Below, piece by piece: positions 3,875 through 15,287 of a stretch of DNA of 16,680 nucleotides. The translations under genes were made by a program, and so were the position numbers. Each line of letters begins with the position of its first letter. Within the stretch, counting starts at the first letter, position 1. The notes under the pieces were generated by a model that ran no database searches, was not told the DNA's origin, and worked only from the letters and a program-made list of their open reading frames with translations. The stretch is from an uncultured Oscillospiraceae bacterium (GTDB lineage: Bacteria > Bacillota > Clostridia > Oscillospirales > Oscillospiraceae), in assembly GCA_934661135.1 (NCBI GenBank), contig CAKUJA010000050.1, forward strand, positions 1 through 16,680, in the 5' to 3' direction.

Positions 3875-3908
3875 CCGCCCCGGCTCGAAAGAGCCGGGGC
3901 GGTTTTCT
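3875..3908 (+). terminator. Rho-independent terminator of the permease gene
   Basis: 12-bp GC-rich stem CCGCCCCGGCTC (3875-3886) / GAGCCGGGGCGG (3891-3902) with a GAAA tetraloop, then TTTTCT. Confidence 0.85.
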
Positions 3909-4015
3909 GCTTCAGCGCGACAAAAGTTGGAGCCGGCGGAGCTTGGCGGGGCGATTGCGTTTAGCGGGAGAGTGTGGTATGCTGAATGTAAATATAATTT
4001 ACGGGGGACGGTAAT

Positions 4016-4897
4016 ATGACACTGGGACAGAAGCTCCGGCAGACGCGGCTGAAGGCGGGCTTGACACAGAGCCAGGTTGCGGGGGATCGGATTACGCGGA
4101 ATATGCTGTCGCAGCTCGAGAACGATCTGGCGACGCCGAGCGTAAAGACGCTGGAGTATCTGGCTTCCGTGCTGGGGGTGAGCGTCGGATGGCTGATGAC
4201 GGATGAAACATCTGATTTAGAATTGAAAATAATTGGGAATGCTAGGAGAATGCTGCAGGAGCGGCAGTTTGCGGCGTGTTTAGCGCTGATGGAGCGGCAG
4301 AAAGCGGCAAAAACGGAGGAAGAATTGCTGATTTTAGCGGTTGCTGCGGCAGAGGTTGCGGAAGCGCTGCTGCAAGAGGAGCAATTTGCTGCGGCAAAGC
4401 AGCGGGCGGAGCAGGCGATTGCGTGGAATGAATGCGGCATTTACCGGCAAACGTCAATTTCATTGCGGTCGAAAGCGGTACTTGTGCGGTGTGCGCAGCG
4501 GCAGGGCGATGCGGCAGATGCGGTTGCGGCGTACCGAGCGCAGTATTTGCAAGCGGCAGATGCGGTGGACTATCATCTGCTGATGGCGCGGTATCAGCTG
4601 GAGCAGGAGCACATTCAGGCGGCGGAGCGGGAGATCTGGTCAATCGCGGAGCTGCCGGAGCATAAGCGCGCGGAATATCTGATTCTGCGCGGGCGGATCG
4701 CCTACAAGAAGGAGCAGTATGAAAATGCGATTCTCTACTTGCAGCAGGCGGAGGAGTGCGGCGCACTGCCGCGGCTGCTGAAGCGGGAGCTTTGGCGCAC
4801 GATGGAGCTTTGCTGCAAGGAGACGGAGGACTACCAGCAGGCGTATCAGTATGCGAGCAAGCAGCTTGAGTTGCAGAATGAGACGCAGACACAGTAG
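4016..4897 (+). CDS. XRE-family HTH transcriptional regulator with a C-terminal TPR-like helical repeat domain (RNPP-like architecture)
   Basis: 293 aa. The N-terminus (LGQKLRQTRLKAGLTQSQVAG...ISRNMLSQLENDLATPSVKTLEYLASVLGV) is a classic HTH_3 domain. The remainder is A/Q/E/L-rich helical repeats, including the TPR-like stretch LILRGRIAYKKEQYENAILYLQQAEE. Confidence 0.8.
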   Translation: MTLGQKLRQTRLKAGLTQSQVAGDRITRNMLSQLENDLATPSVKTLEYLASVLGVSVGWLMTDETSDLELKIIGNARRMLQERQFAACLALMERQKAAKTEEELLILAVAAAEVAEALLQEEQFAAAKQRAEQAIAWNECGIYRQTSISLRSKAVLVRCAQRQGDAADAVAAYRAQYLQAADAVDYHLLMARYQLEQEHIQAAEREIWSIAELPEHKRAEYLILRGRIAYKKEQYENAILYLQQAEECGALPRLLKRELWRTMELCCKETEDYQQAYQYASKQLELQNETQTQ

Positions 4898-5064
4898 GGA
4901 TATGGAAAGAAATCTGCCCGCCGGGAACGAGTTTGGTCTCGGGGGGCAGAAGGCGCGTCATACGTTGGGCGCGTCAGGCAAGAATGCAGGTCGATCCGCG
5001 AAAAAACCGGCCGCCGGGACTGGCGAACACGCACAAGGACAACAACAAAATACCGCGCAGAGCA

Positions 5065-5107
5065 AGAGAAGTCCTTCCGGGAAACCGGAAGGACTTCTCT
5101 TTTGCCC
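5065..5107 (+). terminator. Strong hairpin terminator about 170 nt downstream of the regulator gene
   Basis: Perfect 16-bp stem AGAGAAGTCCTTCCGG (5065-5080) / CCGGAAGGACTTCTCT (5085-5100) with a GAAA loop, then TTTGCCC. Confidence 0.6.
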
Positions 5108-5260
5108 AAAAGTCTGCTGGTTTACGCTTTGGAGCCCTGCAATAAAAATGCGAATTGCATTAGGCTTCGGTTTTGCCGTTCTGCTTGTGTCGGCATCCAG
5201 GCCAGAGGATGCAGTATAATGACCTCCTGAATCAAAGAACGATTTGCAGGAGGGACTGCT

Positions 5261-6106
5261 ATGAACGAGAGAAAATTATCTGCAACCATACTCGCAGAAT
5301 ACGACCGCTGGCTGCGGCAGGAGGAGCGAGCCGATGCTACGCGGGAAAAATATCTGCGCAGCATCCGAGCCTTTGCCGCGTGGCTGGGCAGCGCGGCGGT
5401 CACGAAGGATGCCGTGACGGAATGGAAGGCACATTTAGTCCAGCAGCGGCAAGCACCATCTACCATCAACACCGCGCTTGCCGCGCTGAACGGCCTGCTC
5501 CGCTTCCTCGGCTGGGAGGACTGCCGCGCAAAATTTCTGAAAGTCCAGCGCTGCATCTTCCGCGCACCGGAGCGCGAGCTGGCGCACGCGGAGTATGCCC
5601 GTCTGCTCGCCGCCGCAAAAAATTCCGGCGATGCGCGGCTTGCGCTGCTGATGGAGAGCATCTGCGCGACCGGTATCCGCGTCAGCGAGGTGAAGTTTCT
5701 CACCGTGGAAGCCGCGCAGTGCGGCCGTGCCGAGGTTGCATTGAAGGGCAAGATCCGCACCATTCTGCTGCCCGCGAAGCTCTGCCGCAAGCTGCTGAAA
5801 TACGCCAAAAAGCAAAAAATCGCCCGCGGCGAGATTTTTCTCACCACGGGCGGAAAAGGCATGGACAGGCGGCAGATCTGGTCTGCCATGAAGCGGCTGT
5901 GCCGCAAGGCGGGCGTCGCGCCGTCGAAGGTGTTTCCGCACAATCTGCGGCATCTGTTCGCAACGGCGTACTACCGCGTGTATCGCGACATCGTGAAGCT
6001 CGCGGATATGCTCGGCCACAGCTCGATTGAAACGACGCGCATCTATCTCGTCGAGAGCGGCGCGGAGCACCAGCGCCAGCTCGACCGGCTTGGCCTGATC
6101 ACATAG
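5261..6106 (+). CDS. Tyrosine site-specific recombinase (phage-integrase/XerCD family, small ~280-aa type)
   Basis: 281 aa with an AGGAGGG RBS 7 nt upstream. Catalytic signature residues are present: ATGIRVSE (Arg), HNLRH (His-x-x-Arg), GHSSIETTRIYL (His...Tyr), plus an N-terminal SAM-like core-binding domain. Confidence 0.9.
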   Translation: MNERKLSATILAEYDRWLRQEERADATREKYLRSIRAFAAWLGSAAVTKDAVTEWKAHLVQQRQAPSTINTALAALNGLLRFLGWEDCRAKFLKVQRCIFRAPERELAHAEYARLLAAAKNSGDARLALLMESICATGIRVSEVKFLTVEAAQCGRAEVALKGKIRTILLPAKLCRKLLKYAKKQKIARGEIFLTTGGKGMDRRQIWSAMKRLCRKAGVAPSKVFPHNLRHLFATAYYRVYRDIVKLADMLGHSSIETTRIYLVESGAEHQRQLDRLGLIT

Positions 6107-6127
6107 GACAGAATCCATATTCTGTCC
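6106..6127. repeat. Left recombination-site candidate (IRL): palindromic GGACAGAAT-CCAT-ATTCTGTCC
   Basis: 6106-6122 (GGACAGAATCCATATTC) is the exact reverse complement of 6374-6390. The site overlaps the recombinase stop codon TAG at 6104-6106. Confidence 0.75.
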
Positions 6128-6174
6128 ATGCCTGTACCAGCAGAGCGCAGTATTCCACATTGCTATCTATTGAA

Positions 6175-6203
6175 AATATAGCACGGAATATGTCAAAAAT
6201 CAA
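6175..6203 (-). promoter_or_regulatory. Promoter inside the invertible segment, pointing toward the recombinase gene in this orientation
   Basis: The minus strand reads TTGATT (6203-6198), a 17-nt spacer, then TATATT (6180-6175). An overlapping TTGACA lies at 6196-6191. Confidence 0.55.
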
Positions 6204-6233
6204 TAGTGGGGCTACTTCTGCGCGCAAAAAATC

Positions 6234-6263
6234 CAGTCTCAAAAACTCGGTTTTTTGAGACTG
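6234..6263. terminator. Bidirectional terminator-like hairpin inside the invertible segment
   Basis: 12-bp stem CAGTCTCAAAAA (6234-6245) / TTTTTGAGACTG (6252-6263). T-rich tracts follow on the plus strand (TGCTTTTGTGCGCTTTTTTCTTTTT) and on the minus strand (GATTTTTTGCG). Confidence 0.5.
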
Positions 6264-6367
6264 TGCTTTTGTGCGCTTTTTTCTTTTTCGTTGGTCGTTT
6301 AGCCTGCGTTTCAAGGGAGCTTTTCCCTATTTCATCATGATTCTCATCTCGCTCTGCGGCAAGCGGT

Positions 6368-6390
6368 GGAACGGAATATGGATTCTGTCC
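6368..6390. repeat. Right recombination-site candidate (IRR): GGAACGGAAT-ATGG-ATTCTGTCC
   Basis: GAATATGGATTCTGTCC (6374-6390) is the reverse complement of 6106-6122. The central ATGG is inverted relative to CCAT in IRL. Confidence 0.75.
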
Positions 6391-6477
6391 ATGCCAAAAA
6401 GCGTGGCACGAAACAAGGTAGACCCAGCCCGTGGAAGCGGACAAAACATAAAGATATTTGATTTAGGAGGAACGATC

Positions 6478-9400
6478 ATGAAAAAACGATTCTTGGCAGG
6501 CTTGCTCATGCTTGCCATGATCCTCACCCTGCTGCCGGTCAGCGCACTGGCCAGCAACAGCAATGCAGCACCGCTTCAGGTGCTTATGATCGGCAACAGC
6601 CACACGGTCGACATGACCGAGTGGACCGATCAGGTGCTTCAGGACTCCGGCCTGAAGGATCAGATCCAGATCACGCCGCTCACGCCGATGGGCGGACGGA
6701 AGCTGTTCACCAACGATACGGTGCGCAGCTCGCATATTACGGCTGCGACATGGTCCGGTACGGAGGATGCGTGGAATGCCACGCATCAGGACAATGGCCG
6801 CGATGTCGGCTCTAAAAAGAGCCAGTATGACACGCTCCTGAACGACAGCGGCAAGACCTGGGATCTGGTTGTCGTGCAGGACTGGGAAGAATCCACAGTC
6901 AATTCCGATTCTGCCGCAGTCGCATCCGGCATTCAGCGTGCGGTGCAATGGCTGAGAAGCTATCCTTCCGTAACGGCGGATACGAAGATCGCATGGGCTG
7001 CCGACTGGCCTGACGCGGCCAACCATGCGGGTGCGCAGGGCAATATGACCGGCGCGATCGCTGCTGTAAATGCGCTGACGGAAAACGGCGTGAACTTTAT
7101 CATCCCCACGGGCCTGACCGTTGAAAATGCGCGCACCAGCTATTTTGATAAGGTCAACAACGCAGACGACAGCTATCTGCCTGGCAGCGAAGAGACCTAC
7201 GGCGGAATTGCGAACGTGGCGAAGTACCATCTGATGGAGCGCGACGCGAACCACCTGAGCTATGAACTGGGCTGCTACTCCGTGGCCGCAGTCACGATTG
7301 CAGAAATTGCCACGCAGTTTAACCTGATGAATCTGGATGCATTCCTGACTTCTTTGAAAACGGCACCGAAATGGACGAACCCCGCTGAGTGGAAGGGTAC
7401 ATTCAACGACAATATCTGGGCCATCGTGAAGGAGAGCGTGAAAAACGCGGTGGAATCCCCCACGCAGGTCACGCAGTCCGTCTATACGGAGGACCCGGCA
7501 GACATGATCGCCGCGCAGATCCTCGCGGCGGACTATACGGAAAGCGCCGCTGCCGCCGCAAAGGCGGACTCAGAGGATGCGCTGCGCACTATCGCTGAGG
7601 CTGTGAAGGCCACGGCGCAGGCCGCAGTAGGGGAAACTACCACGCTCAGCGTTTCCTCGGCCTATACCGCTCCGGTTGACGGCACAAAGGACAACAAGAC
7701 CGGTACGGCGGGCAAGTACGAGATCAAGGTATCCTTCCTGAACGGATACACGCAGAAAAACCTTGCTGTAATCTCCGGCGCGATCAAGCCGGATTATTAT
7801 GAAGGCGGCGAGGAAGAACTGACTGCAGCGAAGACGGCAGCAGCTGCGGATCTTGCGAAGACTGCAGCGCTTGTCGGCAAAGATGCGGAAGCATATAGCA
7901 GCGAGATCAACGCGGCCTACAGCACCAACGATGTGAATACCGCGCTGGCAGCGGCGAAGGCGGCCATGGTCGCAGACGCCGGGTATCTGTACGCGGACTG
8001 GATCGGTGCCGATGGCTGGAGCGTCGGCACGAAGATGCCTCTCGGCGAGGATACCGGTGTGCGCTTTACGATCCGTGAGGAAGGCGCCGATACCGTTCTG
8101 ACCATCAGCGGCAATGGCACAATTCCAGACTTGGTCATGAGTGGTGTACCGGAAAGAAGCTATTCTTCCCCCGCTTGGATGAACAGTGATGCGAGCGGTA
8201 ATATTACGAAGGTCGTGATTGAAGACGGCGTTGCGCTGGGCCATATGTCCTTGTGGCTGAGCCGCGTGAAGACGATGGAGATCGGGGAAAACGTCACCCT
8301 CCCCGCCAATGCAATTTACCTGAACGGCCAGAACTGCGACAGAACCATTACCTTCAAGGGCGCCGCTACCGTGAACAACCGCGCGATCGACGGCTACACC
8401 GGTTCTGACGGTAAGGGCAGTCAGGCCGCACAGAATGCACAGATTTTCGTGTATGCAGACTTTAATAAGCTCGGTGTTTCGAGCGCGGAGAGCTTTGTGG
8501 GCTCCACCGTTCTGAAAAACAACAACTACGGCCTGCCTATCGTTGTTGTCATCAACACCGGCAGCAGCGTGGAGCCGGAAGATGCCGTCCTTGCGCAGGG
8601 CAATGTTCCCGCGAAGGGTTGGAAGGATGACGGCACAGCCGACGGCGGCGATTCCGGCGTGACCTATACCATCAAAAAGATCGGCGATGAGGTCGTGCTG
8701 GAGTTCTCCGGCAGCGGCACGATTCCGACCTTTACAACATCGACACCGCATTACGTCAAGGCGCCGTGGTGGGGAACCAACAGCGGCAGCGCCGTCACAA
8801 AGGTCATTGTCAACAGCGGTGTTACCGTTGGCGGCTTAGCGCTCTACATTCCCACGGCAAAAGAGATCATCCTGAAGGATGGCGTGATGCTGAAACCGAA
8901 TGCAATCTATTTCAACACGCAGAATGTCGATACCGAAATCACCTTTGAGGGTGCGGCCACCGTTTCCTCCGGCTCGATTAGCTGGTATTCCGACAGCAAT
9001 CAGAAGAACAAGGCTGTGCAGATCACGGTGACGGCCGATTTCAGCAAGCTGCAGAAGTCCGGCAGCCGCGTGACGAAGGCCTCCGACTTTATCGATAGCG
9101 GCCTGCTGACGACGCTCAACAAAAACGGTCTGCCGATCGTGGTCGCGGTCAACACGGAAGACTCGAAAGCTGACGCACAGGAGTTTGGCATCACGACCGG
9201 CGGCTGGGATGAAAATGGCAATACGGTCGGCGATTCGACCGGCATCAAATACAAGATCTACACCGTCGGTGCGGATACGATCGTGGAATTCAGAGGCAAT
9301 GGCACTATGCCGGATTATGCTGCAACCGGCGTTACGAATCAAAATCTGCATACCAACCGTATGCCATGGCGAAATGACCAGGTGACGAAGATCATTGTCG

Positions 9401-11091
9401 GTGACGGCGTGCAGCCCGGACAGATGAGCCTGTATGTCAAGAACAATGTGCGGGAGATCGTGTTTGAAGGCAACGTCAATCTGAAAAAAAATACGATCTA
9501 TTTCAATACCCTGACACAGGATGTCAGCATTTTCTTTAACGGCACACAGGCGCAGCTTGTAAGCGGAGCCTTGGATGGTTACGGTGTAGGCACGGCACAC
9601 CACATTTACGTCTACGCAAAGTCCGGCACATTGACGGTTGGAGACAATAAGGTAACGACTATCAATGACTTTGCTGGCAGAGGCGTGACCACGACTGCGG
9701 ATGACAGCAAGACCGTCGCACTTCTGGTGTTTGACGATCAACTCTCCGCAGCGAAGAGCGCCGTCAACACCTCCGAAATCATCGCCCTGACCGGCACCTG
9801 CCAGCAAAACTCGGAAGATGGCAAGAAAACAGCGGTTGAGACCTATGTGAAGAACAAACTCGGTGAGCAGTACGCTTCCATTACGGTGAGCGCGACCAAA
9901 AAGACAGCGGCGGTTTACACAATCACCCTCTCGACGGACGGGAAGAGCACCAGCTTTGATCTGAAATTCACCTTCACCTTCTCCCACAGTTGGAGCTACA
10001 CCGCAACCGGCGCGACGATCACGGCGGAATGCGCACATTGCCACGACAAGCAGGCCGCGCGCCTGATCGCCTCCGATCAGAAAGAGACCGGCAACGCGAT
10101 TGAGGCCACGGTGAGCTACGGTACGGCATGGCCGGGCGGTGCGCTGACGGTCAGCTATACGAAGGACAGCGCTCCGTTCGACGGTATGCCGAAGGATGCC
10201 GGCAGCTATACGGCCAGCATGACGATCTCTGACGCTACCGCTACCGTGAACTTTACGATCAGTCATGCTTTGACGCACCATGAGGCGGTTGATGCGACTT
10301 GCACAGAAAACGGCAACAATGAATACTATACCTGCGAGACCTGCCACAAGGTTTTCAAGGATGCAGCAGGTACGCAGGAGACCACTGTTGCAGCCGAGAT
10401 CATTAAGGCACCCGGTAAGCATGACTGGTCCAACAAGGACGGCGTCTGCAAGGTCTGCCAGACCAAGTGCAGCGAAGCGCACACCGCGGGCACGACCTGC
10501 CCGGTCTGCGGCAAATACACGCCGATCCCGGTCGTTCCTGCGGGCGAACCCGCGAAGAATCCGTTCAACCCCAACGCCGGTAAGACCAGATTTGCAGACG
10601 TTTCCAGCAACGCTTGGTATGCCTCCGCGGTCGATTATGTGGTCGACAAGGGTCTCATGAACGGCACGGGCGAGAACAAGTTCTCCCCGAACGCGGATAC
10701 GACGCGCGGCATGATCGTTACGATCCTCGCCCGTCTCGACGGCAAGAACACGTCCGGCACGCCTTGGTATCAGGCTGGCCAGCGCTGGGCGATGGAGTAC
10801 GAAATTTCGGACGGCACGAACATGACCAACGCCATCACCCGCGAGCAGCTCGTCGCAATGCTGTTCCGCTATGCGGTCAAGAACGGCCTCGAAGCGGTCA
10901 CGCTCTCTGAGAATCTGACCCAGTTTACGGACGCTTCAGACATCAGTGCGTGGGCCGTCTCCGCGATGCAGTGGGCCGTCGGTCAAGGCCTGATTCAGGG
11001 TTCGAACGGCCAGCTGCGCCCGCAGGCGAACGCCTCCCGCGCCGAGGTCGCCACGATTCTCATGCGCTTCTGTGAGCTGATGAAAAAGTAA
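6478..11091 (+). CDS. Large secreted cell-surface protein: signal peptide, SGNH/GDSL-like hydrolase domain (DUF4886-like), three ~200-aa tandem modules, Cys-rich region, three C-terminal SLH domains
   Basis: I place the start at ATG 6478 (GGAGG RBS 7 nt upstream; MKKRFLAGLLMLAMILTLLPVSALA signal peptide) rather than the track's 6271. SGNH block I (LMIGNSHT) and block V-like (RDANHLS) motifs are present. SLH motifs occur at FADVSSNAWYASAVDYVVDKGLMNG and FTDASDISAWAVSAMQWAVGQGLIQG. A terminator follows the gene. Confidence 0.9.
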   Translation: MKKRFLAGLLMLAMILTLLPVSALASNSNAAPLQVLMIGNSHTVDMTEWTDQVLQDSGLKDQIQITPLTPMGGRKLFTNDTVRSSHITAATWSGTEDAWNATHQDNGRDVGSKKSQYDTLLNDSGKTWDLVVVQDWEESTVNSDSAAVASGIQRAVQWLRSYPSVTADTKIAWAADWPDAANHAGAQGNMTGAIAAVNALTENGVNFIIPTGLTVENARTSYFDKVNNADDSYLPGSEETYGGIANVAKYHLMERDANHLSYELGCYSVAAVTIAEIATQFNLMNLDAFLTSLKTAPKWTNPAEWKGTFNDNIWAIVKESVKNAVESPTQVTQSVYTEDPADMIAAQILAADYTESAAAAAKADSEDALRTIAEAVKATAQAAVGETTTLSVSSAYTAPVDGTKDNKTGTAGKYEIKVSFLNGYTQKNLAVISGAIKPDYYEGGEEELTAAKTAAAADLAKTAALVGKDAEAYSSEINAAYSTNDVNTALAAAKAAMVADAGYLYADWIGADGWSVGTKMPLGEDTGVRFTIREEGADTVLTISGNGTIPDLVMSGVPERSYSSPAWMNSDASGNITKVVIEDGVALGHMSLWLSRVKTMEIGENVTLPANAIYLNGQNCDRTITFKGAATVNNRAIDGYTGSDGKGSQAAQNAQIFVYADFNKLGVSSAESFVGSTVLKNNNYGLPIVVVINTGSSVEPEDAVLAQGNVPAKGWKDDGTADGGDSGVTYTIKKIGDEVVLEFSGSGTIPTFTTSTPHYVKAPWWGTNSGSAVTKVIVNSGVTVGGLALYIPTAKEIILKDGVMLKPNAIYFNTQNVDTEITFEGAATVSSGSISWYSDSNQKNKAVQITVTADFSKLQKSGSRVTKASDFIDSGLLTTLNKNGLPIVVAVNTEDSKADAQEFGITTGGWDENGNTVGDSTGIKYKIYTVGADTIVEFRGNGTMPDYAATGVTNQNLHTNRMPWRNDQVTKIIVGDGVQPGQMSLYVKNNVREIVFEGNVNLKKNTIYFNTLTQDVSIFFNGTQAQLVSGALDGYGVGTAHHIYVYAKSGTLTVGDNKVTTINDFAGRGVTTTADDSKTVALLVFDDQLSAAKSAVNTSEIIALTGTCQQNSEDGKKTAVETYVKNKLGEQYASITVSATKKTAAVYTITLSTDGKSTSFDLKFTFTFSHSWSYTATGATITAECAHCHDKQAARLIASDQKETGNAIEATVSYGTAWPGGALTVSYTKDSAPFDGMPKDAGSYTASMTISDATATVNFTISHALTHHEAVDATCTENGNNEYYTCETCHKVFKDAAGTQETTVAAEIIKAPGKHDWSNKDGVCKVCQTKCSEAHTAGTTCPVCGKYTPIPVVPAGEPAKNPFNPNAGKTRFADVSSNAWYASAVDYVVDKGLMNGTGENKFSPNADTTRGMIVTILARLDGKNTSGTPWYQAGQRWAMEYEISDGTNMTNAITREQLVAMLFRYAVKNGLEAVTLSENLTQFTDASDISAWAVSAMQWAVGQGLIQGSNGQLRPQANASRAEVATILMRFCELMKK
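8011..9738 (+). repeat. Three diverged tandem protein-level repeats (~194-202 aa each) within the surface-protein gene
   Basis: Units start near 8011 (DGWSVG...), 8617 (GWKDDG...) and 9199 (GGWDENG...). They share the landmarks G-(V/I)-x-(F/Y)-x-I...(S/R)G(N/S)GT(I/M)P(D/T)...VTK(V/I)(V/I)(V/I)...NAIY(L/F)N...GLPIVV(V/A)(I/V)NT. The repeats are diverged at the DNA level. Confidence 0.75.
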
Positions 11092-11158
11092 ATCGTGATG
11101 ATTCATCGTTGCGCTTGCGGCATACGCCGTTTGCCGGAACATCACATCGCAAAACCCG

Positions 11159-11190
11159 GAAGGGGCGGCTACGGCCGCCCCTTCTTTCTA
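11159..11190 (+). terminator. Rho-independent terminator of the surface-protein gene
   Basis: 11-bp stem GAAGGGGCGGC (11159-11169) / GCCGCCCCTTC (11174-11184) with a TACG loop, then TTTCTA. Confidence 0.8.
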
Positions 11191-11278
11191 TTCGAATACC
11201 TTCCTTGGGCCGTGCCCCATTTGAAGAATAATCGTTAGCCGTTTCGTTCCAATATCAAAAAGTTACTCAAATGCGCTA

Positions 11279-11307
11279 TTGACAAACGTTTGTTCAGACG
11301 TTATCAT
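11279..11307 (+). promoter_or_regulatory. Near-consensus promoter overlapped by a perfect 12-bp palindromic operator
   Basis: TTGACA (11279-11284), a 17-nt spacer, then TATCAT (11302-11307). The palindrome ACAAACGTTTGT (11282-11293) overlaps the -35 hexamer and the spacer. Confidence 0.6.
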
Positions 11308-11313
11308 GTGAGA

Positions 11314-11412
11314 CATAGCAGGAAATCCTGCCGACAACAGAATATTCCGAAGCGCACCATAAAACGTAATGAAGGAGCGCTGCGACCGAATAATGGCCGC
11401 AGCGCTCCTTTT
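11314..11412 (+). ncRNA. Candidate short (~100 nt) transcript or leader from the 11279 promoter to the 11372-11412 terminator
   Basis: A promoter and an intrinsic-terminator-like hairpin lie ~100 nt apart, with a small GCAGG-AAAT-CCTGC hairpin at 11328-11341. There is no SD-preceded ORF; ATG 11369 (32 codons) lacks an RBS. Confidence 0.3.
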
Positions 11413-11422
11413 GGTGCTCTTT
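11372..11422 (+). terminator. Intrinsic-terminator-like hairpin (possible attenuator of the rep leader)
   Basis: 13-bp stem AAGGAGCGCTGCG (11372-11384) / CGCAGCGCTCCTT (11398-11410), followed by TTGGTGCTCTTT. Confidence 0.5.
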
Positions 11423-11525
11423 AGGAGAAATACGGGGGTGGGATCACAATCCCAAACAACTGAATAACCAGCAACGCGGATCACACCGCAGGTTAGGAAA
11501 CGCGCACGGCGCGCGCGACGACCTC

Positions 11526-11826
11526 GTCGAAGCAAGCTGCGTATCTTTCGCTTCCGTGCAAGCACGAAAGCTCAATCACTACGCTGCTTCTCCTCTCCCC
11601 ACAAAGCCATCCGGCTTTGCGGGGTCCCCAAGACGGGCGAGCGAGAAACGCGCCGTGGGCAGCCTTGGCAGGCTGCATCATGCTGCCCAATCTGTTTGGA
11701 CACACAATGTCCGGCCATAGTTGGGGTTCCCACGAAGTAGCCTACTTCGTGGGGAAAGGAGAAACAAACGGAGCGACTGAGCTTTCGCGCTTGCGCGGAA
11801 GCGAAAGATACGCAGTTTGTTTCGAC
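11526..11826. repeat. Long imperfect inverted repeat with 75/76-nt arms (11526-11600 and 11751-11826) around a 150-nt GC-rich, hairpin-rich centre
   Basis: The arms are about 85% complementary, including a 20-nt perfect core CTGCGTATCTTTCGCTTCCG (11537-11556) paired with CGGAAGCGAAAGATACGCAG (11796-11815). All substitutions but one are transitions, and there is one 1-nt indel. Confidence 0.8.
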
Positions 11827-11976
11827 GCAAGACAGGCTGCTATGCGCTGGGGTTGAAAGCAGTAAAGACCCCAGTCACAGGCTGTGAGAGCTGCCAAGCT
11901 CTGTCCGCGCTGTTCCCCATCGCCGGGGCGCGAGCTGCAAATACGGCGGAAACAATTTCAAAAGAATGGAGTGTTT

Positions 11977-13344
11977 ATGTCAGAAAACAAAAAATATTAC
12001 TACATGAAGCTCAAGGAAAATTTCTTCTCCAGTGAACGGATGGTTGTTCTGGAAACGATGCCGGACGGAATTCTGTATTCCAATTTGCTGCTCAAAATGT
12101 ACCTGATGTCGCTCAAGCACAACGGAATTCTACTGCTGCATGAAAATCTGCCGCACACGCCGCAGACCATTGCAACGTTTACCCGCCATCAGATCGGCAC
12201 CGTAGAACGCGCGCTGCAAATCTTCCTAAAACTCGGCTTTGTCGAGCTGCTGACCGATGGTGCGTACTATATGCCGGATATTCAGCTGCTGGTCGGGCGA
12301 TCCTCCACCGAAGCGGAGCGAAAACGCCGGGAGCGGCTGCGTTTACAAGCACAGAAGCTCCTGTCTAACTCAAAAGCGGACATTTGTCCACCAGAGAATA
12401 GAGATAAAGAGATTAGAGAACAGAAGCGCGCGGACAAATATCCGAACTTACGAAGTAAAGGAGGAAGATGTCGTATGATGCCAATTACAGAAGAAGTCCA
12501 TGCGTTTTTGACGGCAAATGCAGCTGCGCAGATACAGCGAGATAATGAGTATCTCGATCCCGCTGATGGATTGCTGCACTGCAAGACCTGTCATGGCTTG
12601 CGGCAAACGGTCATTCCTGCTCCCGGCGGGACAGGTTTTCTCCGGCCACGCTGCCTGTGCCCCTGCCAGAGTGCTGCGGAAAAACAGCGCAAAGCAGCAG
12701 AAGAAAAACGGGAGCGTCTGGAACGCATTCAGCGGCGAAAAGCACATGGGTTACAGGATCGCCGCCTCTACGATTGCACGTTTGCCAACGATAACGGAAA
12801 AACGCCAGGGCTGACTGCCAAAGCCAAGCGCTATGTGGAACATTGGGAGGATGCGGCACGGAAAAATATTGGACTGCTCCTGTTTGGCGATGTGGGAACC
12901 GGAAAATCCTTTCTTGCCGGGTGCATTGCAAACGCGCTGCTGGAGAAGGACGTGCCGGTTCTGATGACAAACTTTCCAACGATTCTGAATCGCATAACCG
13001 GACTGTTCGGTTCTGAGCGTGCTGACTTTCTTGCCAGCCTGAATGCCTATGATCTTCTGATTCTGGATGATCTTGGTGCAGAGCGAGGAACAGAGTATGC
13101 ATTAGAACAAGTCTTCGCCGTGATCGACGCCAGATACCGAAGCCGCAAGCCGTTGATCGTCACAACAAATCTGACGCTGGATGCGCTCAAGCACCCAGAC
13201 GATCTTTCACATGCCCGCATCTATGACAGGATCTTGGAAATCTGCGCCCCGATTCTGTTTGGCGGCGAAAATCTGCGCGTGGAAAAAGCAAATGAAACAA
13301 AAACTGCTGCCAGAAGTCTCCTGCTGCCGGGCAATGCCGCCTGA
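11977..13344 (+). CDS. Replication protein: phage replisome-organizer N-terminal domain fused in frame to a DnaC/IstB-like AAA+ ATPase
   Basis: I place the start at ATG 11977 (GGAG 5 nt upstream; MSENKKYYYMKLKENFFSSERM..., typical of replisome organizers). The C-terminal half has Walker A (LLLFGDVGTGKSF) and Walker B (YDLLILDDLGAE) motifs. An internal AAGGAGG RBS precedes in-frame ATGATG at 12475, so a separate ATPase product is possible. Confidence 0.8.
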   Translation: MSENKKYYYMKLKENFFSSERMVVLETMPDGILYSNLLLKMYLMSLKHNGILLLHENLPHTPQTIATFTRHQIGTVERALQIFLKLGFVELLTDGAYYMPDIQLLVGRSSTEAERKRRERLRLQAQKLLSNSKADICPPENRDKEIREQKRADKYPNLRSKGGRCRMMPITEEVHAFLTANAAAQIQRDNEYLDPADGLLHCKTCHGLRQTVIPAPGGTGFLRPRCLCPCQSAAEKQRKAAEEKRERLERIQRRKAHGLQDRRLYDCTFANDNGKTPGLTAKAKRYVEHWEDAARKNIGLLLFGDVGTGKSFLAGCIANALLEKDVPVLMTNFPTILNRITGLFGSERADFLASLNAYDLLILDDLGAERGTEYALEQVFAVIDARYRSRKPLIVTTNLTLDALKHPDDLSHARIYDRILEICAPILFGGENLRVEKANETKTAARSLLLPGNAA

Positions 13345-13354
13345 ATCGCTGCCG

Positions 13355-13417
13355 TAGCGACTATTGTAGCGACTGCAAAGGACATTTCAAATTTCCATAG
13401 CGACTAATGTAGCGACT
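13355..13417 (+). repeat. Iteron-like direct repeats: four copies of TAGCGACT arranged as two 20-bp units
   Basis: TAGCGACTATTGTAGCGACT (13355-13374) and TAGCGACTAATGTAGCGACT (13398-13417) differ by one mismatch. The units are 43 bp apart and the copies within each unit are 12 bp apart. They lie between rep and mobC. Confidence 0.7.
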
Positions 13418-13494
13418 ACGGAATCCAAGGTATAAAAACTCTAGATTTTATGCGGTGTACGAAACGGTGGCAGGAGACTCAGGCTGCGTTTCAG

Positions 13495-13549
13495 GCTTTT
13501 CTTGCTGCGCAAGAAAAGCGCAAGCATCGCCGTTTGATATCAAAACGGC
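13495..13549 (+). promoter_or_regulatory. Candidate oriT region: two adjacent inverted repeats upstream of mobC
   Basis: 11-bp perfect hairpin GCTTTTCTTGC-TGC-GCAAGAAAAGC (13495-13519) and near-palindrome GCCGTTTGATATCAAAACGGC (13529-13549). The position immediately 5' of mobC-relaxase is typical for an oriT. Confidence 0.4.
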
Positions 13550-13608
13550 ACTTGCAGGGAGAACCCTGACCCCAATATGCCGCCCTTTGGCGGTGGAAAG
13601 GAGACTCG

Positions 13609-13920
13609 ATGAACGAAGAACCATACAAGATCTGTTTGCGACTGAACGCCGATGAAGCCCAAAAGCTGATCACGAACGCCAAAGCCTGCGGCCTGACACG
13701 AACCGCGTACTTGCGCAGGCTGCTGAACGGATATGATCTCAAACCAAGACCATCCGCAGAGATGGAAGCGCTGCGCACTGAAATCCATCAGATCGGCAAC
13801 AACATCAACCAGATCGCCCGCAAAGCAAATGCCGGATTTGCCAGCCGGGAAGAAACCACGCGGGCATTACGAATGCTGGACGAGGTCTACGGTCTACTCT
13901 ATGAGGTTGCGAAACGATAA
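13609..13920 (+). CDS. mobC: MobC-family relaxosome accessory protein
   Basis: 103 aa with an AAGGAG RBS. The conserved MobC motif IHQIGNNINQIARKAN is present. Its stop overlaps the relaxase start (TAATG at 13918-22), indicating translational coupling. Confidence 0.85.
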   Translation: MNEEPYKICLRLNADEAQKLITNAKACGLTRTAYLRRLLNGYDLKPRPSAEMEALRTEIHQIGNNINQIARKANAGFASREETTRALRMLDEVYGLLYEVAKR

Positions 13921-15287
13921 TGGCAATTACAAAGATTCTGTACCGGAACGGCGGCTTGCGGCAGGCGATCGATTACATCACGAATCCTGCTAAAACGAAC
14001 GAGCAACTGCTGACTGATTATGTCCGCTGCGATCCCGGTCATGCCGCGCAACAGATGATGGACACAAAGCGCGCCCTTGGCAAAACCGCCGGACGGCAGT
14101 GCTATCACATCATTCAGTCTTTCAAGCCGGACGAGATCACGCCGGAGCTGGCACATGAGATCGCCAGACAATTCGCAGCCGAGCATTTGCCGGGATACGA
14201 AGCCGTCATTGCGACCCATGTGGACAAAGCACATATTCACTCACATATTGTGTTCAACTCGGTCAATGCCGTCACCGGGAAAATGTATCACAGCACCCGC
14301 GAAAACAACTACAAGCAGATTCGCGGCGTTTCAGACCGGCTGTGCAAAGCGCATGGTTTGAGCATCGTTTTGGAAAACGATGAAAAGAAAGCTGTCAGCT
14401 ATGCGGAGTGGTTGCGTCAGAAAAAGAGCCAGCCGACGTTCCGCTCTATGCTCGAAGCGGACTTGCACGATGCCATCGAGGATGCCAACGATCTCGGTCA
14501 CTTTTTCCTTCTTATGGAGCATAGGGGCTATGAGATCCATCACGGCAAACGCCTTGGATTTCGGTTACGCGGGCAGGAACATTTCATGTGTCCGGAACGC
14601 AGAAATCCAGCCTTCTCAGAAGAACGTATTGAACAGGCCATTCTGGGCAATCTGGAGCAAATCGAAGCTGGAAGAAAACCTGCCTTCACGCCGAAGCCAA
14701 AGCTGCAGCCATATCGCCCACATCCAAAGTACACGGGATTCCTTGCGCTATATTATCACTACTGCTATCTGCTTGATCGAATTGAAAAACGGCAGTACCC
14801 GCCGCGCATGACGCCACACTTACGAAAAGAGATCATGAAGGCTGATATTTACAAAGCACGTCTGAAATTTTTACAGGAACAGAATATCTGCACACCGGAC
14901 GATTTGGCTGGCTGCATACAGAATATAGAACAGAAGATTGCAAAACTGTCCAAACAGCGAACGGTTCTGAACGTGCGTAAGAAAAAGCGAAAGACGCTCT
15001 ATGATGCTCTGGCGGCAGAAGCTGCCTTCGAAGGATTTGAGCCAAAGAAAGCAGAATATGACGATGCAAAAGAGGTTCTGGATACTTGCGGCATTTCGCG
15101 GCAAACCCTCACGGAGGAAAAAGCGGATCTCTATGAGCAGCTTGCGCAGGTCAATCAGCAGATCCGGCAAGAGCGCTGGAAGCTCAAGCAATGCAAGGAA
15201 ATCTCGGAGACGGCAGTCATCATGCAGCGGGACATCGACCGCGTTGAACAGCAGCCGCAGCGGATAGCTGTCACACGGCAGCGGTAA
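13920..15287 (+). CDS. Relaxase/mobilization nuclease (MobA/VirD2 family)
   Basis: 455 aa. The N-terminal relaxase domain has the histidine-triad motif HVDKAHIHSHIVFNSV and a Tyr-containing N-terminus (MAITKILYRNGG...). The C-terminal part looks coiled-coil-like. Confidence 0.9.
   Translation: MAITKILYRNGGLRQAIDYITNPAKTNEQLLTDYVRCDPGHAAQQMMDTKRALGKTAGRQCYHIIQSFKPDEITPELAHEIARQFAAEHLPGYEAVIATHVDKAHIHSHIVFNSVNAVTGKMYHSTRENNYKQIRGVSDRLCKAHGLSIVLENDEKKAVSYAEWLRQKKSQPTFRSMLEADLHDAIEDANDLGHFFLLMEHRGYEIHHGKRLGFRLRGQEHFMCPERRNPAFSEERIEQAILGNLEQIEAGRKPAFTPKPKLQPYRPHPKYTGFLALYYHYCYLLDRIEKRQYPPRMTPHLRKEIMKADIYKARLKFLQEQNICTPDDLAGCIQNIEQKIAKLSKQRTVLNVRKKKRKTLYDALAAEAAFEGFEPKKAEYDDAKEVLDTCGISRQTLTEEKADLYEQLAQVNQQIRQERWKLKQCKEISETAVIMQRDIDRVEQQPQRIAVTRQR

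Follow-up and report, generated by a model that had tools for sequence, protein, structure and literature searches.

A long hairpin upstream of a replication gene in an Oscillospiraceae mobilizable element is probably a pair of inverted copies of a dispersed, structure-constrained module

Introduction

Why a hairpin of about 300 nt should stand in front of a replication gene is the question raised by contig CAKUJA010000050.1 of an uncultured Oscillospiraceae bacterium (assembly GCA_934661135.1). The window, meaning the whole stretch of 16,680 nt that was analyzed, carries the replication gene (rep) of a small mobilizable element, and the non-coding DNA upstream of rep holds the long imperfect hairpin at 11526-11826. 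A sequence-only reading took this hairpin for a single unit and offered several roles for it: a replication origin or priming site active on single-stranded DNA (ssi/sso-like), a single-strand promoter of the Frpo type, an insertion resembling a miniature inverted-repeat transposable element (MITE), or a leader or antisense RNA controlling rep. The answer favored here, with a probability of about 0.78, is that the hairpin consists of two copies, set tail to tail, of an interspersed and structure-constrained module of ~106 nt that is widespread in Oscillospiraceae chromosomes and in mobile elements of gut Firmicutes.

Two inverted copies of a ~106-nt module

The geometry of the hairpin is as the sequence-only reading described it, and alignment reproduces its figures exactly. 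Positions 11526-11600 and the reverse complement of 11751-11826 match in 65 of 76 columns (85.5%), with one gap and ten mismatches, nine of which are transitions and one a transversion; the longest perfect run is 20 nt. Arm-to-arm pairing leaves 3 G-U pairs and 7 mismatches on the plus strand and 6 G-U pairs and 4 mismatches on the minus strand. An inverted-repeat search delimits arms of 59 nt each at 11525-11583 and 11769-11827 (88% complementarity) and confirms the near-perfect 25-nt palindrome at 11729-11753 (12+1+12). The smaller hairpins reported for the center (AAAGCC/GGCTTT, GGGCAGC/GCTGCCC and GGACA/TGTCC) are present both in the sequence and in the predicted folds. As RNA, positions 11500-11850 are predicted to fold at -205.5 kcal/mol on the plus strand (z -13.1) and at -216.5 kcal/mol on the minus strand (z -16.4), and folding with DNA parameters gives z scores of -10.9 (plus) and -13.1 (minus). 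No shuffled sequence was as stable on either strand with either set of parameters.

Scans for known RNAs and for genes agree with the sequence-only reading, which had recognized no standard RNA and no credible open reading frame (ORF) here and had suggested an Rfam search. None of the Rfam 15 families reaches its gathering score anywhere in the window, and at E<=10 only two terminator-like chance matches (11126-11189) appear in 11100-12100. tRNA and tmRNA scans gave no match, and the ORFs over the hairpin are short, mirror-image pairs.

The treatment of the ~300 nt as one unit did not hold. BLAST searches against plasmid and phage records returned only short matches, each covering one arm and the small hairpin adjoining it, while the other arm matched the same place reversed. 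Alignment of these single-arm matches from unrelated records is what allowed the ~106-nt unit to be recognized. The module begins with a head, TCGTCG, followed by a long imperfect hairpin (hairpin A), a linker CTCCTCTCCCC, a second hairpin closed by CCCC/GGGG (hairpin B) and a tail GGGGNCCCC. The internal palindrome that the sequence-only reading correctly noted within each arm is hairpin A. A scan of the window with the covariance model R1, run with search filters off, finds exactly two copies:

11524-11629, plus strand: left module copy (R1 137.7 bits, E 8e-34), with head TCGTCG at 11524-11529, hairpin A at ~11530-11589, linker CTCCTCTCCCC and tail GGGGTCCCC at 11621-11629
11603-11618: left hairpin B, AAAGCC-ATCC-GGCTTT, lengthened by CCCC/GGGG
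11630-11722, plus strand: spacer between the tails (93 nt), with hairpins GGGCAGC...GCTGCCC at 11657-11688 and GGACA-CACAA-TGTCC at 11698-11712
11723-11828, minus strand: right module copy, inverted (R1 112.9 bits, E 2.8e-27); read on the plus strand, its tail is GGGGTTCCC at 11723-11731 and its head CGACGC at 11823-11828
11729-11753: right hairpin B, identical with the 25-nt palindrome
11526-11826, no strand assigned: long imperfect hairpin, in which left hairpin A and linker pair with the same part of the inverted right copy (repeat search, folds and alignment)

The tails of the two copies thus converge on the 93-nt spacer. The right copy is 74% identical to the left overall and 85.5% identical over the hairpin A part. 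A single module folds alone, as two hairpins behind the conserved TCGTCG head; with two inverted copies 93 nt apart and 85% alike over hairpin A, a single strand of RNA or DNA can in addition pair copy to copy. In the predicted folds, the inter-arm hairpin is more stable than purely local folds by ~50-60 kcal/mol as RNA and by ~35 kcal/mol as DNA, a margin owed to the 85% likeness of the partners over hairpin A. Tail-to-tail inverted pairs are found at L051 and L019 too (labels of the L001-L208 type denote sequence stretches, or loci, retrieved for comparison), where the partners are ~60% alike; at L051, the one folded, each module folds on itself. The left module of the window is also bracketed by a short outer helix, CC(T)CGTC / GACGGG (11517-11529 and 11630-11637), and its left flank, CGACGA-CC-TCGTCG, is a palindrome by itself.

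Covariation across the module family

The sequence-only reading had called for homologues and a covariation test, and the module family provides both. An exact-pattern scan of one genome per species returned at least 120 loci, which among the matches listed belong mostly to Oscillospiraceae (Pseudoflavonifractor, Flavonifractor, Oscillibacter, Enterenecus, Colidextribacter and Pusillibacter). A few copies are in genomes labeled Merdibacter, Lachnospiraceae and Coriobacteriaceae, in stretches that also hold mobile-element genes, and a pattern scan of viral contigs gave two loci only. A seed of ten copies analyzed with RNAalifold has 31 predicted pairs, 22 of them with compensatory changes. R1 matches number 93 in the window and L001-L099 and 37 in L100-L129; 117 reach at least 55 bits, spread over about 100 loci.

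The structure of the module is maintained by compensatory Watson-Crick changes. In the alignment of the 93 matches, standard pairs fill 91.4% of cells and double changes occur at 30 of the 31 pairs. The covariation score is 0.512, against 0.164 for shuffled alignments and at most 0.09 when the partners are slid by 1-3 columns. Of 2703 cells, 45 are G-T and 59 A-C, the two kinds being equally rare, and the same symmetry holds for copies sense and antisense to neighboring genes. Because the two kinds of cell are equally rare, the constraint is Watson-Crick pairing on both strands rather than the wobble tolerance typical of RNA.

The TCGTCG head is the best-conserved unpaired stretch (column identity 0.8-0.99). 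Conservation sets in sharply at the head and ends at the module tail, and the flanks of different copies are unrelated. A small-RNA gene was considered and rejected, since conservation stops at head and tail, the 5' flank has no conserved promoter and a U-tract is missing in either orientation. The copies most similar to a given one mostly occupy the corresponding position in other species. Several genomes were matched on two or three contigs, up to six copies lie within 8 kb (L019), and tandem pairs occur at L011, L076, L036 and L120. Keyword searches of the literature for repeats in Oscillospiraceae, and for palindromic or stem-loop repeats in the genera concerned, turned up no description, which is not proof of absence; the family, which has no Rfam match, is apparently undescribed.

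Housekeeping operons and mobile elements

The module is found in both housekeeping operons and mobile elements and in both orientations. A Pfam census of 150 neighboring genes is headed by PGK, TIM and helix-turn-helix (HTH) families (7 each), followed by relaxases and phosphoribosyl-pyrophosphate (PRPP)-type transferases (4 each) and by PemK and Cys_rich_VLP (3 each). The junction between pgk and tpiA holds a module in nine genome assemblies, always in the same orientation (antisense to the model); both genes are visible in seven of these stretches, and two stretches end at the module. Wherever pgk is visible, the module tail lies 0-32 nt past its stop codon. The ten pgk-tpiA copies taken alone retain 91% pairing with 14 pairs doubly changed, so the structure is maintained at one orthologous site and not only across the repeat family. 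One further copy stands between a tRNA gene and the 5S gene of an rRNA operon. Elsewhere, copies lie beside ArdA-like genes and a Dam-type methyltransferase, or directly adjoin relaxase and mobC genes. The copies abutting mobC and relaxase genes brought an origin of transfer into consideration; this was rejected in view of the pgk-tpiA and rRNA copies and of the gap upstream of mobC in the window, which has none.

Orientation relative to flanking genes, based on crude gene calls and to be read qualitatively only, is distributed as follows:

flanking genes co-directional, module antisense: 42 copies
flanking genes co-directional, module sense: 20 copies
flanking genes divergent: 20 copies
flanking genes convergent: 15 copies

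With the same crude calls, the commonest and closest arrangement is a gene 3' end facing the module tail. Position after stop codons suggests a role in transcript ends or processing.

Several of these loci have further features. In a Pusillibacter faecalis rRNA operon (L002 3776-4230, minus strand), 23S is followed by two tRNAs, the module, a TTGACA...TATAAT promoter-like site and 5S, and a weak antisense module-like match (32.9 bits; L002 7478-7604) lies between the spacer tRNAs after the 16S gene and the 23S gene. At L011 (7100-7725) and L012 (3440-3760), the pgk-tpiA modules are flanked by pseudo-copies of the last 20-60 nt of pgk, stop codon included; the pgk end TTAGGCGTCCAGCAGGCAGGC occurs three times in L011, and one pgk-tpiA module interrupts a pgk-end pseudo-copy at a point where the intact gene reads ACGCC. 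These pseudo-copies suggest insertion into the gene end with duplication or replacement of that end. The six copies at L019 (600-6550, both orientations) lie among a D12-class adenine methyltransferase, a sortase-domain protein and uncharacterized genes, and this locus may be an accessory or anti-defense gene island with a module at nearly every junction. At L053 (1383-4924), a gene with a weak match to ArdA lies between two divergent modules; next to them is another ArdA-like antirestriction gene, whose ORF call overlaps the second module.

Copy state in closely related loci

A metagenome scan with the Rep protein of the window retrieved 80 human-gut loci with 86-97% protein identity, nearly all of them at 93-97%. 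The left copy is present in 20 of the 80 and the right copy in 8. Copy state was scored from R1 matches and sequence anchors in the 60 relatives that have at least 560 nt of upstream sequence and a Rep 94-97% identical:

neither copy: 36 of 60 relatives
left copy only: 17 of 60
right copy only: 5 of 60
both copies, as in the window: 2 of 60

One or both copies are therefore absent from most near-identical relatives of the mobilizable element. L208, with shorter upstream sequence, also holds both copies, which makes the window, L152, L157 and L208 the two-copy loci in this small sample. As the pair is rare among relatives, the element does not appear to need it.

In aligned alleles, each module is cleanly present or absent, and the spacer and the rest of the leader up to the rep start codon are conserved. 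The 93-nt spacer runs collinear in each of the seven relatives aligned, among which every one of the four module states is represented, and is recognizable in the more distant L009. Since the spacer is conserved whatever the module state, the hairpin-packed center belongs to the ancestral leader and not to the repeat. The right site reads GTCCGGCC-TGCACG-CAAGACAGG when empty and GTCCGGCC-ATAGTT[module]TTCGACG-CAAGACAGG when filled. Comparison of the two (GGCC|TGCACG|CAAG and GGCC|ATAGTT...TTCGACG|CAAG) reveals no target-site duplication, and the empty site already bears a CGTC-like motif at the head position. At the left site, three alleles occur: the full module, TCGTCGAAGCAGGACGA and CGGAGGCAGCGAGCTTCCGG. 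We read the two short alleles as remnants of internal deletion in which the head or the hairpin A base has been kept. The zero-copy left allele of type A (TCGTC-GAAGCAG-GACGA) retains the outer helix alone as a mini-hairpin. The right copy is confined to one sublineage, and the left position is occupied in related leaders as well. L009 has only a remnant at the left-module position and is too far diverged (71%) for its precise boundaries to be read.

The leader of the mobilizable element

The non-coding stretch that houses the pair can be placed from base composition and homology. GC content falls from ~0.60 to ~0.50 past ~11100, and homology with the relatives L157, L138 and L162 begins at ~11275, at ATTGACAAACG; together, these identify the stretch as the left-end leader of a small mobilizable element. 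The features around it are the following:

4016-4897: HTH protein (Pfam)
5261-6106: tyrosine recombinase, XerC/D-like (Pfam)
6271-11091: S-layer-homology protein of 1606 aa (Pfam), with host-like GC content at third codon positions (GC3) and its own terminator-like hairpin at 11158-11185
11092-11976: non-coding stretch
~11270-11278: left boundary of the mobile element, just upstream of the promoter-like site
11279-11307, plus strand: sigma-70-like promoter, TTGACA-17-TATCAT (promoter scan, 11/12 matches), the likely start of a leader transcript spanning both copies
11372-11410, no strand assigned: terminator- or attenuator-like hairpin, GC-rich and of 16 bp, followed by TTTTGG; upstream of the modules and kept in L157, L138 and L162
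11977-13344, plus strand: rep, with Phage_rep_org_N and a DnaC/IstB-like AAA ATPase (Pfam), starting 149 nt 3' of the right copy
13609-13920: MobC/NikA-like protein (Pfam)
13920-15287: MobA/VirD2-type relaxase (Pfam)
from 15991: serine recombinase

The promoter-like site is the only one found by a promoter scan of 11000-12100. It lies outside the hairpin, and neither the scan nor inspection by eye detects a -35/-10 pair in the arms. About 65 nt separate it from the 16-bp hairpin, and 11279-11410 could represent a short leader RNA or attenuator at the extreme left end of the element. A megablast search of plasmids with the entire mobile-element portion of the window gave no match.

Related leaders resemble that of the window. 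Those of L003, L004, L005 and L099 carry the left module at the same position and, 60-80 nt downstream, the Rfam pemK motif RF02913. The motif scores 67-70 bits at L003 357-420, L005 2346-2409, L004 8089-8152 (minus strand) and L099 848-911 (minus strand), and the leaders with it precede pemK/mazF-like genes in at least three of these four loci. In the leader of the window, which is collinear with theirs, Rfam scans (of the whole window, and at E<=10 in 11100-12100) do not detect RF02913. A box resembling CCTTGAAAACTGAATATCC precedes the module in several mobile-element leaders (L003 ~92-110, L001 ~3900-3918 and L009 ~2009-2030), and its version in the window is CAAACAACTGAATAACC at 11455-11472. 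Similar wording is, we presume, found in rRNA spacer regions of Firmicutes.

Comparison with known repeats and hairpins

The module is most readily likened to the repetitive extragenic palindromic (REP) units and bacterial interspersed mosaic elements (BIMEs), and what it does is inferred. REP units and REPINs are dispersed extragenic palindromes with a conserved unpaired end tag (GTAG or CGTC). They form head-to-head or tail-to-tail pairs with spacers of 20-100 bp and possible stem-loops, and such pairs may fold as one large hairpin (PMC3733652; PMC3116915). CGTC-tagged REPs have no known dedicated transposase (Di Nocera et al. 2013, PMC3733652; Bertels and Rainey 2011, PMC3116915). The TCGTCG head of the module contains the CGTC tag, the module is extragenic and frequently lies near the 3' end of the gene before it, and it forms inverted pairs, that of the window with hairpins in the spacer. 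As with the CGTC-tagged REPs, no dedicated transposase was found, and no RAYT gene was seen in flanks of ~8 kb. The module differs in that it spans ~106 nt with two hairpins, 31 pairs and conserved internal loops, whereas a REP is a single palindrome of 20-40 bp with a stem of 8-9 bp. Its hosts are Firmicutes, which the REP survey PMC3733652 does not mention, and its copies are only ~68% alike within a genome yet conserved at orthologous sites across several named genera. The long hairpin would thus fit as a counterpart of the REP tail-to-tail dimer or REPIN, although the module, about three times longer, two-hairpinned, diverged and found in Firmicutes, is no strict member of the class.

Other dispersed repeats are more distant. 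The MITE-like insertion proposed by the sequence-only reading survives in part: a dispersed ~106-nt repeat does exist, with copies independently present or absent, but the 300-nt unit is not itself repeated, no terminal inverted repeats are seen within a module, and the one filled/empty comparison reveals no target-site duplication. Unlike the ends of a MITE, the head TCGTCG... does not recur in inverted form as the tail ...GGGGNCCCC. ERIC, BOX, RUP, Correia and Bacillus cereus bcr repeats are dispersed intergenic sequences of 100-170 nt with stable predicted folds, found inside operons in either orientation. The module is not known to be related in sequence to any of them, and neither terminal inverted repeats nor target duplications were seen for it. 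Strong cross-genus compensatory evolution such as that of the module is not known to be typical of these families.

Structures described on conjugative elements offer looser parallels. EGeRS1 of the pLS20 family is GC-rich, has multiple inverted repeats and is repeated upstream of operons; it is predicted to form a branch of ~300 nt as single-stranded DNA or RNA and is reported only on pLS20-family plasmids and pBS72 (Val-Calvo et al. 2021, PMC8708921). Compared by description only, it is the nearest described analogue in Gram-positive conjugative elements, but it measures 400-600 bp, and the module also occurs in housekeeping operons and is dispensable in relatives. The Frpo and ssi sequences of F and ColIb-P9 (Masai and Arai 1997; PMC11541004) resemble the locus in being a hairpin of ~300 nt upstream of first-entering genes, on what may be the template strand. 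The stem in the window, however, reconstitutes no -35/-10 pair, and the module is dispersed beyond mobile elements and absent from most relatives. In published work, Frpo homologues were sought by BLAST with five known Frpo/ssi sequences, and the one Gram-positive island examined gave no significant match (PMC11541004). The pemK RNA motif RF02913 belongs to the same leader family as the module but is a distinct motif of 61 nt.

Alternative explanations

The sequence-only reading had itself named many dispersed genomic copies as an outcome that would rule out a dedicated role. Many dispersed copies were found, and 36 of 60 relatives with Rep 94-97% identical have neither copy; on these two grounds, a dedicated origin or ssi/sso site, a dedicated Frpo-type promoter and a rep-specific leader or antisense regulator are all contradicted, the promoter also by a stem that holds no -35/-10 pair. 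Looser forms of these ideas carry different weights. A structured 5' leader, in which a transcript from 11279-11307 forms the long hairpin and controls the stability or translation of rep mRNA, is a tentative option that may coexist with the repeat family as a co-opted effect. The pair does lie between the promoter-like site and attenuator-like hairpin on one side and rep on the other, the left copy holds a conserved position in related leaders that also bear RF02913, and the long hairpin is thermodynamically dominant. Yet the two-copy state is rare (2 of 60), most relatives have no copy despite their near-identical Rep, the module also occupies pgk-tpiA and rRNA operons in both orientations, and neither strand has an excess of G-U pairs. 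A co-opted regulatory effect on rep is possible, but it would not be essential. An origin of replication or Rep-binding cruciform serving the adjacent replisome-organizer gene is very unlikely indeed: the hairpin adjoins rep and a cruciform can form, but copies are not co-inherited with Rep, a repeat search of 11200-12100 finds no direct repeats (iterons), and the module is dispersed in chromosomes.

Roles on DNA deserve separate treatment. It is rather unlikely, though less so than for most other alternatives, that the module is a hairpin-recognized site on single-stranded DNA, acted on by an HUH-type or other enzyme or by strand-specific processes of conjugation or replication, and so represents a new class of large mobile or recombination elements with a CGTC head, also retained by Oscillospiraceae at fixed sites such as pgk-tpiA. 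This idea draws on the Watson-Crick-only covariation, the orientation independence, the TCGTCG head and the gain and loss beside CGTC-like sites without target duplication. A leading-region element of the Frpo or ssi/sso kind, serving early rep expression or complementary-strand synthesis in the recipient, is improbable. Every gene from 4016 to 15287 points towards the relaxase, and should the relaxase be the last to enter, the transferred strand would serve as template for rep; ArdA-like genes, a Dam-type methyltransferase or relaxases are found close to some modules; covariation restricted to Watson-Crick pairs fits a structure at the DNA level; and GC-rich regions with multiple inverted repeats precede the pLS20 establishment genes (PMC8708921). 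Set against this are the promoter scan with its single site outside the arms, the housekeeping-operon copies in both orientations, the absence of modules from most relatives and the published Frpo searches that had no significant match in one Gram-positive island (PMC11541004). An inverton, in which the inverted copies would be recombination sites around a 93-bp invertible segment that switches rep expression, is highly improbable. Long inverted repeats do surround a short segment, and the window encodes a tyrosine recombinase (5261-6106) and a serine recombinase (from 15991), but the spacer has the same orientation in eight aligned sequences including the window (two of them, the window and L157, being two-copy alleles), it is conserved even without a flanking repeat and contains no promoter-like site, and each repeat belongs to a dispersed family that usually occurs as single copies.

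The interspersed module remains the preferred explanation, and several observations weigh against it. Identity among copies is 68% within a genome and 64% between genomes, which differs from recently amplified REP or MITE families and suggests copies that are old and have been maintained individually. In one stretch of 50 kb from Pusillibacter faecalis, there were only two copies. Presence/absence polymorphism fits both insertion and precise deletion and cannot distinguish them. The orientation counts come from GC3-filtered gene calls that miss lower-GC genes of mobile elements, including rep in the window. No mobilizing enzyme was found: tblastn of all retrieved loci with an IS608 TnpA query matched only L160, and the 25 commonest of the 157 Pfam families in the 150 neighboring genes (~8 kb flanks) include no transposase family. 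The L160 match (6608-7012, minus strand) is an IS200/IS605-type TnpA-like ORF with 32% identity to the IS608 TnpA query (E 5e-22); it lies ~2.2 kb downstream of the end of rep, and no module copy was detected in L160. Finally, the symmetric, wobble-poor covariation argues against a purely RNA-level role, and a transcript-level effect is the weakest step in the proposal.

Proposed mode of action

As a REP/BIME-like repeat, the module might be gained and lost beside CGTC-like motifs as a hairpin-forming intergenic unit. With its tail just past a stop codon, it would act on single strands, either as a barrier or processing site in transcripts or as an extruded or single-stranded DNA hairpin. The symmetric, wobble-poor covariation and the orientation independence point to a hairpin at the DNA level, instead of or in addition to one in RNA. 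In this element, the pair likely does no more than change the leader RNA of rep or the single strand that is transferred. Its effect on the leader transcript from 11279-11307 would at most be modulatory, for example through an imperfect duplex of ~75 bp offered to a double-strand-specific RNase, and the pair is probably required for neither replication nor transfer.

Significance

The big hairpin upstream of rep is best regarded as an optional pair of repeat copies and not as the origin of the element or a special single-strand promoter. The repeats form a family, strongly supported by covariation, that is spread through gut Clostridia which are abundant yet have received little study (Pseudoflavonifractor, Flavonifractor, Oscillibacter and relatives) and through the mobile elements of these bacteria. 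Such repeats disturb gene calling and assembly, and they generate long hairpins and substrates for recombination. Because compensatory evolution keeps the module at fixed sites in glycolytic and rRNA operons, it probably has a role at the level of the host. Its symmetric, wobble-poor covariation makes the family a useful test case for whether a conserved "RNA-like" structure acts as DNA.

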